Shown here in pieces: positions 8,153 through 20,852 of a stretch of DNA of 32,000 nucleotides (within the stretch, counting starts at the first letter, position 1; each line of letters opens with the position of its first letter). The notes under the pieces are model-generated. The model was not told where the DNA came from and made no database searches. It was given only the letters and a program-made list of their open reading frames with translations. Source of the DNA: Candidatus Korarchaeum cryptofilum OPF8 (GTDB taxonomy: Archaea > Korarchaeota > Korarchaeia > Korarchaeales > Korarchaeaceae). Both the position numbers and the translations under genes were made by a program. The DNA is taken from assembly GCF_000019605.1 (NCBI RefSeq), contig NC_010482.1, positions 1,320,001 through 1,352,000 of the forward strand. The letters are read 5' to 3'.

Positions 8153-8195
8153 GAGCGCTCAGCATAGTTCGAGAAGCCAAAGGCCGGCGCTGGCA
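8153..8195 (+). promoter_or_regulatory. 5' strand of the pre-23S processing helix, with a canonical BHB
   Basis: GAGCGCTCAGCATAGTTCGAGA pairs with 11751-11772. A 4-bp AGCC/GGCT follows, then bulge AAA (8179-8181), then GGCCGGCGCTGGCA pairing with 11730-11743. Confidence 0.85.
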
Positions 8196-10225
8196 CGCTG
8201 CTACGCCGCCTGGTGGATGGCTCGGCTCGGGCGCCGAGGAAGGGGGTGGCAAGCTGCCATAAGCCCCGGGGAGCCGCAGGCAGGCTTCGATCCGGGGATC
8301 CCCGAATGGCGATGCCGCCGAGAGGCGCTCCCGGCAGGGAGCGGGAACCCCCCGAATTGAAGCATCTCAGTAGGGGGAGGAGGAGAAACCAACCGGGATG
8401 CCCTGAGTACCGGCGAGGGAAAGGGGCTGAGCTCAAACCGAACTCCCGCTCGCGAGAGCGGGTGGATGTGGGGTTGCGGGGGGATCGGGAGCCGCTGGGA
8501 GGGAAGCCGAAGTGGCCTGGAACGGCCCGCCATAGAGGGTGAGAGCCCCGTAGGCGTAACCTACCAGCGGTCCGGTCCTCTCCCGAGTACCGTGGGTTGG
8601 AATACCCGCGGGAATCCGGGGGTCATCGACCTCCAAAGCTAAATACGTCCCGAGACCGATAGCGAACTGAGTACCGTGAGGGAAAGCTGAAAAGCACCGC
8701 TGGCGCGGGGTGAAAAGAGCCTGAAACCAGGCGGTCATAGGAGCGGCGGCCCTCAAGGGCTGAAGCTCCCGAAGGAAAATGCCGCGAGGCATGAGTACGA
8801 GGGAGCGGACCGGGGTCGCCCCGTACGTCTTGAAACACGCGCCGGGGAGTTCACGGGCGTGGCGAGCCTAAGGGCTTTAAGCCCGAAGGCGGAGCGAAAG
8901 CGAGGACCCCGCAGCGATGCGAGGGGGTCGCCTCCGAAAGGGGGTTCAGTCACGCTCGTGAGACCAGAAGCCGGGCGATCTACTCCTGGGCAGGGCGAAG
9001 CCGGGTCGCGAGCCCGGTGGAGGCCCGATAGGGATGGTGAGGTGCAAATCCCTCCCGTGACCTGGGAGTAGGGGCAAAAGACCAATCTAGCCCGGCAATA
9101 GCTGGTTCCCGCCGAAGCCTCCCGCAGGAGGATCTCCGCGGAGGGTGGGGGCGTGGTAGGGCAACGATTGGGTGGGTAAGGGGCTCCGCCCCGCCACCCT
9201 CTCGAACCCCGAATGCGCCTCCCCCGTAGAAGCGGGGAGCCGGGCGGCGGGGGGAAGCTCCGTCGCCGAGAGGGGAACAACCCGGACCGGGGTTAAGGTC
9301 CCCAAGTCCTGGCTAAGTGCCGAAATCCGAAGGGCGTCTCCCTCCTAAGACAGCGGGGAGGTAGGCTCAGAAGCAGCCATCCTTTAAAGAGTGCGTAAAA
9401 GCTCACCCGCCGAGGAGGGAGGCCCCCAAAATGAGTCGGGGCTGAAGCCAGGCACCGATACCCCGGCAGCGTCCTGGAAGGGCGCTGGGTAGGCGGGCGC
9501 GCACACCGGGCGGAAGCCGGGGCGTGAGCTCCGGTGGACCGGTGTGTGTTGCAAATCCCGGCGGTAGTAGCAGCGAAGTGGGGTGAGAATCCCCACGGCC
9601 GAAAGCGCCAGGGTTCGCCGGCAATGCTTCGTCAGCCGGCGGTTAGCCGGTCCTAAGGCGGCACCCAGCTGGTAGCCGCCGAAAGGGAAGCCGGTTAATA
9701 TTCCGGCGCCACCGGGGTAGGCGGCAACGCAGGCCTCACCCCTGACGCCTCGGGCTAGGCTGAGCGGGGGCCCGCTGAGGCGGGCGACCCGTCCAAGCGC
9801 TTAAGGCCGCCGAGAACCGTAATGGTGAGAAGCGGCTGAAGGCGCGATGGGGGCCCCTTTGGGGGCCTTCGGCTCATGCCTGGGGACCTTGAAAAGGGGG
9901 TGGGGAGCGATCCCCGGTGCCCGTACCGAGATCCGACACAGGTGCGCTGGCTGAGAAGGCCTAAGGCCTATCGGTCCTAACGCGGGAGAGGGAACTCGGC
10001 AAATTGGCCCCGTAACTTCGGGAGATGGGGTGCCTGCGTTCCTCCGAAAGGGGGTCCGCAGGTCGCAGTGACAAGGGGCGCCCGACTGTTTAACAAAAAC
10101 ATAGTTCCCCGCGAGCCCGCAAGGGTGTGTACGGGGGATGAGGCCTGGCCAATGCCGGTACCTGAAGCCCCGGTACAACGGGGTGAAGGGCCGGTGAAAG
10201 CCGGGAGTAACTCTGACTCTCTTAA

Positions 10226-10770
10226 CGGCAGGTCCCCACTGCCCCCCGAAAGAAATTTTAATCCCTCAGTGAGTGAAAGCGCAATGGACGGAAGGATAGA
10301 AGGGTATGTGGTGGGATTCATAGATGCTGAAGGGAGCTTCTCTGTGAGCATAAAGTTACAGAAAGGCCTCAGATATGGAATCCGCCTCGATCCTGTGTTC
10401 AGTGTAACGCAGAGGGAGAGGGAACCTATAGATACGATAATACATGTGTTAAACGCGGGCAGGATCATAAGGAAGCCGGGGCAACCGCATTTATATCTGC
10501 TGGTAATAGACAGTATATCGGAGCTCATTGGAAAACTGATACCCTTCTTGGAGAGGAACATCGACTTACTGTGTGCGAAGAAACACCAGTACATTCTCTT
10601 CAGGGATATCGTGAGAGGGCTCCATGAAGCCCGACATAAGGATATCGGGGGGATGTATGATCTTGTGATTAAGGCTTATGAGCTCTCCGATTTAAGTATG
10701 AAATCGAATAGGAGGAGGAGTTTGGATGATGTTCTCTTAATGCTTAAGCAGTGGGGACCGCCGGGGGAAA
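10226..10770 (+). mobile_element. archaeal-type (splicing-endonuclease/BHB) intron in 23S rRNA domain IV
   Basis: The conserved 23S sequence ...GACTCTCTTAA|GGTAGCCA... is split by 545 nt. The intron ends form a perfect 12-bp helix (GGTCCCCACTGC at 10231-10242 with GCAGTGGGGACC at 10748-10759) plus CGGC/GCCG, flanked by A-rich 3-nt bulge candidates. The junction is ambiguous by 1-2 nt because of AA repeats. Confidence 0.85.
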
Positions 10771-10775
10771 GGTAG
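10284..10775 (+). CDS. single-motif LAGLIDADG homing endonuclease encoded in the 23S intron
   Basis: The ATG at 10284 lies in frame within track ORF 10068..10775. It gives MDGRIEGYVVGFIDAEGSFSVSI... with one LAGLIDADG-type motif (GFIDAEGSF) and 163 aa. The part of the ORF upstream of 10226 is rRNA exon. Confidence 0.85.
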   Translation: MDGRIEGYVVGFIDAEGSFSVSIKLQKGLRYGIRLDPVFSVTQREREPIDTIIHVLNAGRIIRKPGQPHLYLLVIDSISELIGKLIPFLERNIDLLCAKKHQYILFRDIVRGLHEARHKDIGGMYDLVIKAYELSDLSMKSNRRRSLDDVLLMLKQWGPPGER

Positions 10776-11381
10776 CCATATGCCTTGCCGAATAAAAATC
10801 GGCGTGCATGAATGGCTTAACGAGGTGCCCGCTGTCCCCTCCCGCGGGCCGGTGAACCCGCATCCCGGTGTACAGACCGGGACGCCCCAACGGGGAGAGA
10901 AGACCCTGTGGAGCTTCACTGCAGCCTGGTCTTGTGGTACAGCTGGGGATGCAGAGGGTAGGCGGGAGCGATGTGGCCACCCTCCAGGGGGTGGCCGAAG
11001 CGACGATGGAACACCGCCCTTCTCCAGCTGTACCACTAACCGCTCCGGCGGGACAGGGCCAGGTGGGCAGTTTGGCTGGGGTGGCACGCCCCTGCAAAGG
11101 TATCAGGGGCGCCCTAAGGCGAGCTCAGGCGGGACAGAAACCCGCCGTAGAGGGCAAGGCCAAAAGCTCGCCTGACTGGATCCCTAAACGCGTGGGATCC
11201 AGGGGTGAAAGCCGGGCCTAGCGAACACTCGAGCCCTCTCGGTGAGGGCCGGGTACGACAAAAAAGTTACCCCAGGGGTAACGGAGCTGTGGCGGGCGAG
11301 AGTCCCCATCGGCCCCGCCGCTTGCTTCCCCGACGTCGGCACTGCCCATCCTGGGGGTGCAGCAGCCTCCAAGGGTGGGGA

Positions 11382-11415
<34 letters not shown>

Positions 11416-11729
11416 CAGAACGTCGCGAGCCAGTTCGGTTTCTCCCTGTTGGGGCTGCAAGGCCGCCTGAGGGGAAGGGACCCTTAGTACGAAAGGAACG
11501 GGGTGTCGGGGCCTCCGGTGTACCGGTCGTCCGAAGGGGCGACGCCGGGTAGCCGCGCCCCAGCCGATAAGGGCTGAAAGCATCTAAGCCCGAAGCGGCC
11601 CCCGAAAATAGGCGGCCTCGCCCCTCGTGGGGTTAGGGCGCGGGTAGAAGACCCGTTCGATGGGGGGGTGGTGTAAGGCAGGAGCTTCGGCGGACTGCCT
11701 CAGCCTACCCCTCCCAAAGCCCGAGCGCA

Positions 11730-11772
11730 TGCCAGCGCCGGCCGGCTAATTCTCGAACTATGCTGAGCGCTC
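11730..11772 (+). promoter_or_regulatory. 3' strand of the pre-23S processing helix (BHB)
   Basis: The order is TGCCAGCGCCGGCC, GGCT, bulge AAT (11748-11750), TCTCGAACTATGCTGAGCGCTC. It is complementary to 8153-8195. Confidence 0.85.
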
Positions 11773-11778
11773 AAATAG

Positions 11779-11853
11779 CGGGCCCGGCGGGACTCGAACC
11801 CGCGACCTTCGGCTCCGGAGGCCGACGCTCTGACCATGCTGAGCTACGGGCCC
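11779..11853 (-). tRNA. tRNA-Arg (anticodon CCG)
   Basis: The reverse complement is GGGCCCGTAGCTCAGCATGGTCAGAGCGTCGGCCTCCGGAGCCGAAGGTCGCGGGTTCGAGTCCCGCCGGGCCCG. The anticodon loop is CUCCGGA. Confidence 0.9.
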
Positions 11854-11968: not shown

Positions 11969-12222
11969 CTTTCAATTTCTTCTCCGGGATTCGGAACAAT
12001 TATCGAAGATAAGCTTTCAATTTCTTTCTGGGATTCATCAAGAGCATCGGGGGCTATCCTGAAGCTAGCTATCCCTTTCAACTCCCTTTCCGGGATTCCA
12101 AGGTGTTGTAGTGAATGTTACTGATCTACCTGAGCTTTCAACTCCCTTTCCGGGATTCTCCCTTCGGCCCAAAGCATCTGAGGGAAACGCTGAAGCAGCT
12201 TTCAACTCCCTTTCCGGGATTC
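11969..12222 (-). CRISPR. small CRISPR array with 5 repeats and 4 spacers. Predicted transcription is on the minus strand, with the leader on the 12223+ side.
   Basis: The plus-strand 24-nt repeat CTTTCAACTCCCTTTCCGGGATTC is identical at 12075, 12135 and 12199. Degenerate copies lie at 11969 (CTTTCAATTTCTTCTCCGGGATTC) and 12014 (23 nt). Spacers are 21, 38, 36 and 40 nt and unrelated to each other. The reverse complement ends in GTTGAAAG, like the AUUGAAAG crRNA 5' handle. Confidence 0.8.
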
Positions 12223-12793
12223 CGATGCTCTTCTTCCCCCTCTATACCCCTATCCCCTCTCCTATCGGTGATATTTTTGATACGCCTCCGCTGCTATACT
12301 ACCTGCGCTCCAATTATATAAAGAGTAACGGAGGCACCCCGCTCGCACATAGTTAAAGAATGATCCGATATTGCATTAAATTTTCTCAATTCCGATGAAT
12401 TTTGAAACAAAAGGTCGTAAACGAGATCGCTGAGCATCTCTCTTCTCTCAATCCTCCTCTCATCAGAGTATATTACGGCTCAAGGCTCTACCTTCCAAGA
12501 GCTTCTCGATATTGAGCACCACAAATTTGTGGTGCACTACCGACACGCGATAGCCGCAATTTGCCCCATCAAGCCTCCTATGTGGAACGATGGCCTTCAA
12601 CGGGAGCTCTTATTATCGGACACAAGTCCGCCTTCGATAGTAAATCTCAGCAGGTAATTCATTTGCCTGTCGGTTCATTGAATCCCTCATCTAGCTCCCT
12701 TCCAATCTGAAGCCGTACTAATGCCCTCCCTATCGATCTTAATCGGATCCCGGCGGGAATTAACTATTTAAATGCTGAGAGCCAATTTTATTT

Positions 12794-13387: not shown

Positions 13388-13772
13388 ATTATTATTTCGC
13401 AATTCCTCGACACATAGTTATCGTTCGATCTCATCTTCTCCCCCATCATATACTCCGTCAGATGCAAAGCTCCCTTTTGAGCCCCTCTTCACTGCACTCA
13501 GCCTGAAAAGCTCCTCCGAACTTCCCGGAGCCAGGGGGGATCTAGATTTCCTGATATCTCCGTCTTCTATAGCGGACCCTATAAATCAATATAAAAATCG
13601 CCTCCAAGTGAGCTTCTGGAGGTCTCGATACGGAGGATTTTGTGGAATGCTCAAAAAATATAGGGAAAAGTGAAGTGGATGCTGCTGATCCGTTCCGGGG
13701 GGAATATCGAGAGTAAAATAGAGTTCGTATCAGTGAAGTAGACCGCGTATTGTGATAATTGTTGAAAGGGGC

Positions 13773-14819
13773 TCATTCCGAATAGGAAGTCTCGGTCGCC
13801 CCGAGTCTCACTTTCACTACGAGAGGCCTTGAAGTGGTTATGAAGGAGAGATCCAACGTCAACGTCCTCTCCTCCCCCGGTCCTATTATCTCGATAGGAG
13901 AGGTCCATAAGAAGGTAGAGACGGGCTCCTCATTCACATATATTTCAAGCCATCTGATGCTTATAGGATAGCTTCCCCCGTTTGAGATCGTCAGTGTAAT
14001 ATTATCTAAATCCCATTTATCGAAGAAGGGCCTCAATCCCACATTCTCTATCCTCAATTCTGGTCTCAGGGGTTCTATAGTGTAGGAATCTCTCACTAAG
14101 TTGGGTATCACGACATCCAGCTCGTGCTCTCTATCCAAATACTTCGGATCTATGAAGGAAGCGACGGGCTCTAAGCTAAGGCTCGAGATACCTCCGGGCT
14201 CAATTATCAAGGTCGATGGCGATAGGATGAACGATCTTCGGGAATCATCCAGATAGAGCTCGATATTCTCCGGGATCCCGCTCAAATATAAGGGGACATC
14301 TCCCTCATTCCTCACCTCAAGAGTGAGTTTTTCCAGCTTTAATGAGAAGGTGGAGGAGCTAAAACTTACTTCTTTTATCTTGAGCTCAGCCCTTGCTCCT
14401 TTTACCTCAAAGTTAATGCTATATAACTCCTCATCATGATAGAAAGCCTTTATCATGTAGCTTTTCGGCCCTATAATATTAGTGTAGGGATTGAAGGGAG
14501 TCAGATGGAGGTAAACTACCTCCTCCGGCTTACTCGCTACATAAGTGTCTATTAGCTCTCCCTCCTCCGTAAGGAGGCGGAAAGTTATTGGATAGTCGCT
14601 CGTTTTAAATGAGATCTTGAGGCATGGGTAGCCCTCATGATCGACTACCCCGACTCCTCTGACCTCGAATGATGGCTTATACGTCAGGGCCCCCGCTATC
14701 AGCAGTAAGAGGATTACCGCTGAGATTATGAGGAGGACCCTCCCGATGCTCATACGAAGATAGTCCAAATGTTTAATAAAAGGCTTCTTCCTATGGAAGG
14801 GTTCGAAGACGCATTTCAC
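13773..14819 (-). CDS. membrane-anchored extracellular protein with CARDB-like beta-sandwich repeats. The likely true start is the internal Met of MSIGRVLLII...
   Basis: The 348-aa ORF has a single N-terminal TM helix (RVLLIISAVILLLLIAGAL). Repeated segments contain VRNEGDVPL and TISNGGSYPI motifs reminiscent of CARDB/adhesin folds. Confidence 0.6.
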   Translation of the reverse strand: MKCVFEPFHRKKPFIKHLDYLRMSIGRVLLIISAVILLLLIAGALTYKPSFEVRGVGVVDHEGYPCLKISFKTSDYPITFRLLTEEGELIDTYVASKPEEVVYLHLTPFNPYTNIIGPKSYMIKAFYHDEELYSINFEVKGARAELKIKEVSFSSSTFSLKLEKLTLEVRNEGDVPLYLSGIPENIELYLDDSRRSFILSPSTLIIEPGGISSLSLEPVASFIDPKYLDREHELDVVIPNLVRDSYTIEPLRPELRIENVGLRPFFDKWDLDNITLTISNGGSYPISIRWLEIYVNEEPVSTFLWTSPIEIIGPGEERTLTLDLSFITTSRPLVVKVRLGATETSYSE

Positions 14820-14824
14820 CCTAT

Positions 14825-15043
14825 CTAGAATTTTAAAAAATGATAACCTGAAAGAGCTATAAGTAGAATCCGGTATCCTAAGTTCTCTATGCTCCAGTAG
14901 AGGAGGTCCGTTGTCGGGTAGTTAACATTTACTACCCGTTCCATCTCGGCCTTAGCCTCATTGATGGCTTTCAGGGGCAACGGGGCCCCCCTCATCCTGT
15001 GCATGCGCCCATTCGGTGCTACGTACCACCACATATCGGGCAC
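14825..15043 (-). CDS. hypothetical small protein (72 aa)
   Basis: The evidence is ORF only, with a GTG start and no recognisable motif. It lies directly upstream of and co-oriented with 13773..14819. Confidence 0.25.
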   Translation of the reverse strand: MPDMWWYVAPNGRMHRMRGAPLPLKAINEAKAEMERVVNVNYPTTDLLYWSIENLGYRILLIALSGYHFLKF

Positions 15044-15574
15044 AGAATGCGAGATCTCTCAATTTATAAATTTATCGTGTAGGTATATCCAGATAAGGTT
15101 ATATAAAGTTAACTTTCTGGAAACTGCTGAGGAACCCTCTTCATAGCTCATAGAAGCGCTGAAAATATGGAGGAGTCTTGAGCCCCCCAGCGGATGAGGA
15201 GACTGGTTTAAAGCTCTAAGAGTTGAAAACTCCTGATTTCGGTCGAAGAGTAGCTAATGGATGGGTTAGAAGCTCCTCGCAGATGAGAACGCTGCTAGAG
15301 CTGTAATATCACTCAATATGGTGCCCAGCTGGAGCCACGATTCCTCTGGAGAGCTTTTGAAAGTAAATGAAGGACAGGGGGGAAGAGCTAACTGAAGAAT
15401 CAGCTAGATGGGAGCCTCCTGCATTGGATTACCGTTGTTCATGACCCCATACAGATTGAGGCGTGTGGACGAGAGTCATTCGGATGAGGGAAGATATCAG
15501 ATTTTGCGCTCTCAAATATCGAGGGGATAGGGAAGGCTAAATAAAAACTACTGCCTGACCCCGATGAAAAGCGG

Positions 15575-15778
15575 TTAAGGTATCTTCGCTCCCCTGAATT
15601 TCTCACTAGCTCGCATCCCCGCAACTCCCCAGTTCTCCATTGGGACCTCATTTATTATGATCTCGACGGCTTCAGCCGGTATCCCGAGCTCCGTGAAGAC
15701 CCTCGTTATCCCCTCTATCACCTTCCTCTTTGAATCATCCGAAAAGCCTCTCCACACATTCACAATAACTACTGGCAT
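15575..15778 (-). CDS. 4-oxalocrotonate tautomerase family protein
   Basis: The 67-aa ORF starts Met-Pro (MPVVIVNVW...), giving the catalytic Pro1. The beta-alpha-beta size is typical of the 4-OT family. Confidence 0.75.
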   Translation of the reverse strand: MPVVIVNVWRGFSDDSKRKVIEGITRVFTELGIPAEAVEIIINEVPMENWGVAGMRASEKFRGAKIP

Positions 15779-15821
15779 ACGTTAAAAGCCATAATCAGAA
15801 TAAAAACCTTCTTATGGATTA

Positions 15822-20807: not shown

Positions 20808-20852
20808 AAGTTCTTTCTTTCAATCCTCTTTTCATCGAGACTAACTTTTGAG

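Follow-up and report, generated by a model that had tools for sequence, protein, structure and literature searches.

The locus studied here lies in the single-contig genome of Candidatus Korarchaeum cryptofilum OPF8 (1,590,757 bp, 49.0% G+C), within the window, i.e., the whole 32,000-nucleotide stretch that was analysed (genome positions 1320001-1352000); coordinates are those of the window unless the genome is named. Positions 11969-12222 are occupied by five direct repeats of the 24-nt type, three exact and two decayed, and four spacers. The exact 24-mer, present in three copies in the window, has the plus-strand letters CTTTCAACTCCCTTTCCGGGATTC and reads GAATCCCGGAAAGGGAGTTGAAAG in the RNA sense (minus strand). 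Throughout, "B family" refers to the repeat of this mini-array and "A family" to the repeat of the cas-adjacent resident arrays. The features of the locus are as follows:

11778..11853, minus strand: tRNA-Arg(CCG), oriented like the array, whose trailer repeat lies 115 nt upstream
11969..11992, minus strand: trailer-most B-family repeat, decayed by 4 substitutions; predicted to fold at 0 kcal/mol, hairpin lost
11993..12013, minus strand: spacer 1, 21 nt, the oldest; common to all sister loci (L043, L036, L048, L026)
12014..12036, minus strand: another decayed B-family repeat, with 3 substitutions and 1 nt deleted; no fold predicted; 30.6 bits against CRISPR-DR25
12037..12074, minus strand: spacer 2, 38 nt, the anchor spacer; in all sister loci, 95-97% identical
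12075..12098, minus strand: exact B-family repeat, predicted 4-bp hairpin
12099..12134, minus strand: spacer 3, 36 nt; elsewhere only in the near-identical contigs L043 and L036
12135..12158, minus strand: exact B-family repeat
12159..12198, minus strand: spacer 4, 40 nt, leader-proximal; unique to this genome
12199..12222, minus strand: exact B-family repeat, leader-proximal
12223..12440, minus strand: B-family leader; those of large metagenomic arrays are 91-98% identical to it
12445..12468, minus strand: A-family repeat, degenerate through 4 substitutions and 1 deletion, just upstream of the B leader

An earlier note on this DNA had described an array beside the rRNA operon with no cas gene nearby, and the surroundings bear this out, the neighbours being rRNA, tRNA, ribosomal, FtsZ, aRF1 and similar genes. 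The tRNA-Arg(CCG) gene comes after the 16S-23S operon, and a TTTAAATA box lies between it and the trailer repeat. On the leader side there follow a DUF3782/PD-(D/E)XK gene and an unknown 348-aa ORF, then S24e, Rpb7, a PIN protein and aRF1; farther away are FtsZ, Spt5, L1 and L10 on one side and EMG1, eIF6, FtsY and OTCase on the other. The 32-kb window contains no cas gene. The counts of the same note, three identical and two decayed 24-nt repeats (one with a 1-nt deletion) and spacers of 21, 38, 36 and 40 nt, agree with ours in number and place. The locus fits the general definition of a CRISPR array, which asks for three or more direct repeats of 23-47 nt with unique, similarly sized spacers between them. 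The spacers had been called unique, on the understanding that related spacers would point to a plain tandem repeat; in local alignments the scores among the four stayed inside the shuffle range, and they are mutually unrelated. With up to 3 mismatches allowed, the chance expectation of the B repeat in the window was 0.00 (0/100 shuffles), and Tandem Repeats Finder called zero arrays at the locus.

The orientation of the array can be read from its two ends. On the high-coordinate side, homology with the flanks of metagenomic arrays spans about 115-200 nt (12223 to about 12425), and a leader core of ~115 nt (12223-12336), abutting the first repeat, is conserved in the alignment of all related arrays. 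The TATA-like box that the earlier note had put at about 12314-12321, ~90 nt upstream of the first repeat, is real; it lies on the minus strand as TTTATATA at 12316-12323, 94 nt upstream. The conserved form of the box, TTTATAT(A), falls inside a block kept in all related leaders and is bracketed by an 11-bp inverted repeat with arms at 12325-12335 and 12285-12295. In this lineage, shared with L043 and L036, one of the arms carries two substitutions, and a 1-nt insertion lies beside the TATA box; these changes may represent early decay. With the leader at high coordinates and the decayed repeats, which do not fold, at the low-coordinate trailer, minus-strand polarity is confirmed, as had been proposed together with the trailer position of the decayed repeats. 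The locus thus shows the usual CRISPR layout of an AT-rich leader with a predicted promoter on one side and degenerate repeats opposite.

The intact repeat is predicted to fold into a 4-bp UCCC/GGGA hairpin (-5.9 kcal/mol), whose stem ends at its 3' base exactly 8 nt short of the end of the repeat. Two variants of the repeat in the genus differ in loop bases only, so that the hairpin is kept, and none is predicted for either decayed repeat. Cas6 usually cuts at the 3' base of the hairpin, 8 nt before the repeat end; such a cleavage would leave the crRNA with the 5' handle GUUGAAAG. The likeness to Sulfolobales repeats asserted earlier held in part: there is some resemblance to the Sulfolobales-type Rfam family RF01338 (CRISPR-DR25), with 30.6 bits for the decayed and 18.7 bits for the intact repeat, yet both fall below the gathering threshold of 36 bits, which leaves it at a resemblance.

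The same locus with the same flanks was found on four contigs, of which L043 and L036 are 99.5-99.8%, L048 93-99% and L026 (G017:C13) about 92% identical to this genome. Read from the leader, their spacer orders are:

this genome: leader, spacer 4, spacer 3, spacer 2, spacer 1
L043 and L036: leader, spacer 3, spacer 2, spacer 1
L048: leader, fourteen other spacers, spacer 2, spacer 1
L026: leader, three other spacers, spacer 2, spacer 1

All sister loci keep the two oldest spacers and the decayed trailer repeats, with the leader-end spacers varying, which points to polarised acquisition after the lineages split. The number of exact B repeats per locus ranges from 2 to 14, and this genome has the shortest array of all or close to it. 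A comparison with L026 shows no change in the exact repeats and 1/69 changed positions in the leader core, as opposed to about 8% divergence in the flanks; this far better preservation of repeats and leader core argues for selection or recent activity. Spacer 4 sets this genome apart from the 99.8%-identical contigs. It was either gained here or lost in L043 and L036; a gain would imply very recent activity.

The degenerate A-family repeat that precedes the B leader itself follows an A-leader-like end (about 12469-12482). In L026 this position holds an exact A repeat, followed by 42 nt of spacer and a degenerate repeat, and in L048 an A repeat with 1 mismatch, compared with a background of 2 matches in 300 kb of unrelated genome sequence for the A repeat at up to 5 errors. 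The satellite locus thus combines an A relic and a B array in tandem. The two kinds of array also adjoin on contigs L019, L021 and L049, and in L049 A repeats pass straight into B repeats. Arrays of both families and both types of Cas1 coexist in the genome G031 and on L019, L021 and L049.

Outside this genome, the exact B 24-mer occurs on 47 JGI hot-spring metagenome contigs, mostly in arrays of 15 to ~100 units, and it had 0 matches in 2.9 million viral contigs. With up to 2 mismatches, it is confined to the same genus, where 7/20 other species carry it; G031 alone has 146 copies. The repeat is tied to cas genes on four contigs. In L046 two B leaders face a csa1-cas1-cas2-cas4-cas6 cassette between them (its two arrays are mirror images, probably an assembly artefact, and only the central cassette is relied on here), and in L014 the B leader is followed by csa1. 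Genes for Cas3 with a fused HD domain, a Cst2/DevR-like Cas7 and a Cas5b-like protein stand beside the B arrays of L027, and Cas3 with a fused HD domain beside that of L053. In the metagenomic relatives, B arrays adjoin a type I-B-like effector module. Since the identical repeat builds arrays of up to ~100 units beside cas genes, the mini-array is a CRISPR array as well.

The resident CRISPR-Cas loci of this genome belong to another family (genome coordinates):

433,485-433,636: A-family array, 3 repeats
up to about 443.6 kb: type I-A cluster with cas1, csa1, cas4, csa3, cas7, cas5a, cas3' and cas3''
444,085-451,661: A-family array, 120 repeats of GTCTCGATGAAAAGAGGATTGAAAG
about 452.8-463.6 kb: Cmr1-6 (type III-B) with Csx14/Crn1-like and Csx1 genes

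The whole genome has a single cas1 gene. Two Cas6 paralogues (PF10040) are encoded at 78 kb and 475 kb, remote from the arrays; the former has orthologues in almost every genome of the genus. The best genome-wide matches to the B-family proteins were 29% identical for Cas1, 32% for Csa1 and 26-29% for Cas6, and the I-B-like Cas7 and Cas5 of the B family had zero matches in the genome. By-eye alignment gave about 14/24 positions in common between the A and B repeats, and the two leaders are dissimilar by eye; the 8-nt handles differ in one base, the resident A handle being AUUGAAAG. The mini-array thus shares neither repeat nor leader with the cas-adjacent arrays, and cognate cas1, cas2 and cas6 are missing both from its neighbourhood and from the rest of the genome. 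As the genome holds only type I-A and III-B systems, an A repeat and B-protein matches of about 30% identity at the closest, the mini-array is certainly an orphan in respect of its own machinery. This agrees with the earlier description of an orphan array: the only Cas1 and the Cas6 paralogues, ~30% identical to the cognate ones, are encoded ~0.86-1.25 Mb away, and the I-A and Cmr cluster about 0.87 Mb away.

The origin of the spacers was sought in viral sequence, as the earlier note had suggested, and the search gave no target: neither the cores of spacer 4 (25-nt and 22-nt) nor that of spacer 3 (22-nt) had an exact match in IMG/VR. Likewise, a search of 185,579 species genomes with the spacer 4 core gave no exact match. 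The full-length spacers 3 and 4 (up to 3 mismatches) were confined to this genome within a set of 43 from the phylum, and spacers 1 and 2 had no target in this genome or in the metagenome contigs. Spacer 4 faintly resembles the organism's own 23S rRNA (14/17), an observation that led nowhere.

Taken together, the feature is with certainty a CRISPR array that has a leader, belongs to a second repeat family specific to the genus, and is orphaned in this genome. The reading that we consider likely is that of a genuine, leader-equipped satellite array of the B family on the minus strand, perhaps serviced in trans. The array is probably still transcribed; transcription would start from the leader promoter, whose TATA box and the first repeat are about 94 nt apart, and proceed along the minus strand. 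The cognate csa1-cas1-cas2-cas4-cas6 cassette and the I-B-like module have either been lost by this genome or were never present in it, and growth through the cognate integrase would no longer be possible. If the B hairpin is accepted by one of the resident Cas6 enzymes, as many as three crRNAs, with spacers 4, 3 and 2, could still come from the intact repeats, and with the handle GUUGAAAG one base off the resident AUUGAAAG, the I-A or Cmr complexes might load them; the mini-array may in this way feed up to three crRNAs to the resident effectors. Elsewhere, crRNAs can serve effectors even when the repeat of their array is a different one, and Cas6 paralogues can be broad or specific (PMC6858448; PMC4041471; for the case of M. 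mazei, PMC7694759). Cas6-1 of S. solfataricus, for instance, is specific for its repeat family (PMC4041471). Given this precedent and the absence of the cognate Cas6 and Cas1, processing of the B transcript by the resident enzymes is not assured.

The main alternative is that the mini-array is an inert relic, a dead remnant of a lost B system that gives no usable crRNAs, takes up no new spacers and decays slowly, which we regard as possible if rather doubtful. It would agree with a genome devoid of the cognate cas1, cas6 and effector, with two of the five repeats decayed and unable to fold, and with the lineage-specific changes beside the TATA box of the leader. Moreover, only 3 exact repeats are left compared to 14 in L048 and up to ~100 elsewhere, and no targets were found for spacers 3 and 4 in IMG/VR or in the 43 genomes of the phylum. 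On the leader side, however, all three repeats are perfect, and the leader core is far better conserved between species than its flanks. The decayed trailer repeats, for their part, occur in all sister loci, even in the one with 14 repeats, and so reflect old decay and not a recent death. Finally, spacer 4 distinguishes this genome from contigs that are 99.8% identical to it, which, if it was gained, would speak for very recent activity.

A further question is how the resident system deals with B-family DNA. The earlier note had taken a genome with neither another copy of the repeat nor cas genes, together with a lack of crRNA signal, as the sign of a dead relic; cas genes are present, and so is one more B repeat, the only other copy in the genome, which lies inside spacer 62 of the main A array (genome 447,994-448,031). 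This spacer consists of 7 nt, the whole B repeat and another 7 nt, and at 38/38 positions it agrees with the trailer junction of a B array of 66 repeats (L011:144-181), where the 5' flank is TCC. Spacer 55 agrees at 39/40 positions with cas4 in the B cassette of L046, antisense to the mRNA and with a 5' flank of TCG; its protospacer is absent from 43 species-representative genomes. The third hit was by spacer 2 of the small A array, 34/39 on a stretch beside the B leader of L019, again with a 5' flank of TCG. The dinucleotide TC stood at -3/-2 in 3/3 protospacers, for which the chance is about 2 in 10,000, and TCN is plausible as the PAM of a type I-A system by comparison with Sulfolobus and Thermoproteus. 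A search of IMG/VR for further protospacers with three A-family spacer cores gave no match. The loci targeted by spacers 55 and 62 are absent from this genome, and in L014 a B array, a B leader and csa1 occupy the chromosomal site of this genome's A cassette, with flanks 92.8% identical. With spacer 55 derived from cas4 and spacer 62 from an array trailer junction of the B system, the B cassette has been a target for this lineage. Among the A spacers, about a dozen overlap metagenomic B spacers in shifted register, so the two families evidently sample the same invaders.

These data allow a second and bolder explanation, according to which two CRISPR-Cas families compete within the genus, and the A system, through DNA cleavage by type I-A or recognition of B transcripts by type III-B, has purged the B cassette or keeps it out by means of its spacers against cas4 and the B-array trailer. 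The mini-array would be a survivor, the flanks of its repeats having no PAM and seed match. We put this forward tentatively and consider it unlikely. In its favour are the 38/38 and 39/40 matches with their TC-bearing flanks, the third protospacer beside the B leader, the lack of the targeted loci in this genome and the exchange of cassettes at the site seen in L014. The crRNAs of spacers 55 and 62 would, in addition, run antisense to the mRNA of cas4 and the B pre-crRNA, which suits the Cmr module. The mini-array repeats match spacer 62 over the central 24/38 nt only, with unrelated flanks, which makes DNA interference against self unlikely; crRNA-62 would still be complementary to the predicted mini-array transcript, pairing over these 24 nt. 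On the other side, A and B systems coexist in G031, L019, L021 and L049 and are therefore not generally incompatible, and a strict A/B incompatibility can be ruled out. Just two or three spacers are involved, and random sampling of a sister-strain chromosome during DNA exchange would yield such spacers too. Nor was there any sign of reciprocal targeting, as 0/1115 unique B spacers match A cas genes or contain the A repeat.

An integrated virus or plasmid carrying the mini-array at tRNA-Arg, as in Sulfolobales viruses, is highly improbable. A tRNA gene is a classic integration site and stands directly beside the array, and the adjacent 13565-15817 stretch is an indel relative to the sister strains. 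The array is also short, has a leader and lacks cas genes, similar to those of SPV1 and SPV2 (PMC6858448). However, four strains or species keep the array with its leader and the flanks on either side at the same position (92-99.8% identity), syntenic from tRNA-Arg/23S rRNA to core genes; no integrase or viral genes were found near the array, the indel starts 1.3 kb away and leaves the array outside, and the repeat had no match among the viral contigs. The synteny and the lack of a mobile-element gene nearby largely refute this origin. Chance, or a plain tandem repeat other than CRISPR, which has nothing but the small size of the array in its favour, is refuted with next to no doubt by the shuffles, the unrelated spacers and the long cas-adjacent arrays of the identical repeat elsewhere.

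As a satellite array of the B family, the mini-array has several known counterparts. Orphan arrays and multi-family CRISPR loci are well known, and taken alone the mini-array is ordinary in kind. Orphan (isolated) arrays have been surveyed (PMC5294841), with a recent example in PMC13142298, and the mini-array resembles them in being short, far from the cas locus, unlike the resident arrays in its repeat and dependent on trans-acting Cas proteins. It differs in that its cognate cassette, leader and much longer sister arrays were found here in related strains, in that it keeps a complete, conserved leader, and in that the resident system holds spacers against its cognate cassette. Sulfolobales carry repeat families A-D or AB/CD with their own leaders, adaptation cassettes and Cas6 paralogues (PMC4041471; PMC6858448; PMC7694759). 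The Korarchaeum loci are similar to these in the 24-25 nt repeats ending in (A/G)TTGAAAG, in the two repeat/leader families per genus, each with an array-flanked csa1-cas1-cas2-cas4 cassette, in the type I-A and type III-B effectors that may share crRNAs, and in the Cas6 genes located away from the arrays. As opposed to the Sulfolobales systems, they belong to the phylum Korarchaeota, their repeat stays under the CRISPR-DR25 gathering score, and the B family is linked to a type I-B-like effector module. The mini-arrays of SPV1 and SPV2 likewise have few repeats, a host-like leader with a TATA box and no cas genes, and need the host machinery (PMC6858448), whereas the one described here is chromosomal, syntenic across strains and built of a repeat without a match in viral contigs.

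The spacers of the A arrays also have a parallel of their own. Turgeman-Grott et al. reportedly found in 2019 that Haloferax takes up spacers from related archaeal chromosomes during inter-species mating. Spacers 55 and 62 are comparable in matching non-viral, chromosomal DNA of sister strains with a PAM-like flank; unlike in Haloferax, the targets are parts of another CRISPR-Cas system, namely cas4 and an array end. We know of no mating system in Korarchaeota. A search of open-access literature turned up no report of the mini-array or of cassette-directed spacers in Korarchaeum.

The mini-array exposes the population structure of CRISPR-Cas in Korarchaeum, with two families of repeat, leader and adaptation genes that replace each other at one chromosomal site, in some cases join into hybrid arrays and leave satellite arrays and solitary repeats near tRNA genes. 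The part most worth pursuing is the concrete and testable case of one CRISPR system with spacers against the genes and the array of another. If this targeting is functional, CRISPR systems would police each other's spread between strains, and there would be a rationale for orphan arrays outlasting their cas genes.

The surroundings of the mini-array, the orphan array of the second (B-family) Korarchaeum repeat, differ between strains at several points, beginning with the neighbouring 23S rRNA gene and the segment beyond the array leader:

window about 10238-10752: low-G+C stretch of ~515 nt inside the 23S rRNA gene (8189-11736)
window 10068-10775 (+): open frame with a LAGLIDADG_1 domain (44.5 bits)
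window 12516-12535: perfect 20-nt palindrome
window 13565-15817: 2.25-kb segment missing from the sister contigs L043 and L048
window 13773-14819 (-): unknown 348-aa ORF within the 2.25-kb segment
window 14908-15139: copy of a dispersed element of ~250 nt

The low-G+C stretch, missing from L048, is a 23S rRNA intron carrying a homing endonuclease. This intron is variable among strains, with some carrying it and others lacking it. Small ORFs were also observed in the 2.25-kb segment. The dispersed element has further copies around genome positions 414682 and 624186; in L048 an inserted copy separates the leader from the DUF3782 gene. The palindrome is present on L048 in three copies bordering inserted segments, and a near-copy lies within the 42-nt "spacer" separating the two A-family repeats of sister contig L026. 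The palindrome is a possible site of recombination or insertion. Spacer 4 (window 12159-12198), the leader-proximal one, matches the genome's own 23S rRNA at 14 of 17 nt, in a conserved 3' part of that rRNA (window 11572-11588), and might originate from a foreign rRNA gene; no source was found in IMG/VR and 185,579 species genomes searched by core, nor in 43 genomes of the phylum at 3 mismatches.

Repeats of the resident A family also occur singly:

window 20817-20841 (-): exact repeat, 10 nt downstream of tRNA-Ala(TGC)
genome 419984: repeat with 1 mismatch
genome 424745: repeat with 1 mismatch
genome 1112868: repeat with 1 deletion

The exact copy is on the same strand as the tRNA gene and has neither a leader nor a partner repeat. 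These solitary repeats could be array relics or, alternatively, Cas6-processed non-coding sites. In the main A array, spacers 107-110 recur exactly as spacers 111-114 (genome 450856-451336), an internal four-unit duplication close to the trailer end; L048 contains a similar, two-unit duplication. Adjoining A and B arrays were found on three metagenomic Korarchaeum contigs:

L049:1-1250
L019:4826-6223
L021:1-3926

The L049 array is a hybrid, its A repeats passing straight into B repeats with no B leader in between.

Two Cas6 (PF10040) paralogues are encoded far from every array:

genome 78079-78699: first paralogue (locus L008:1327-2142)
genome 474929-475297: second paralogue (locus L009:1486-2391)

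The one at 78 kb is kept in almost all of the genus's 20 genomes, even in ones where the B-type Cas1 query gave no Cas1 match. Its behaviour is that of a core gene.
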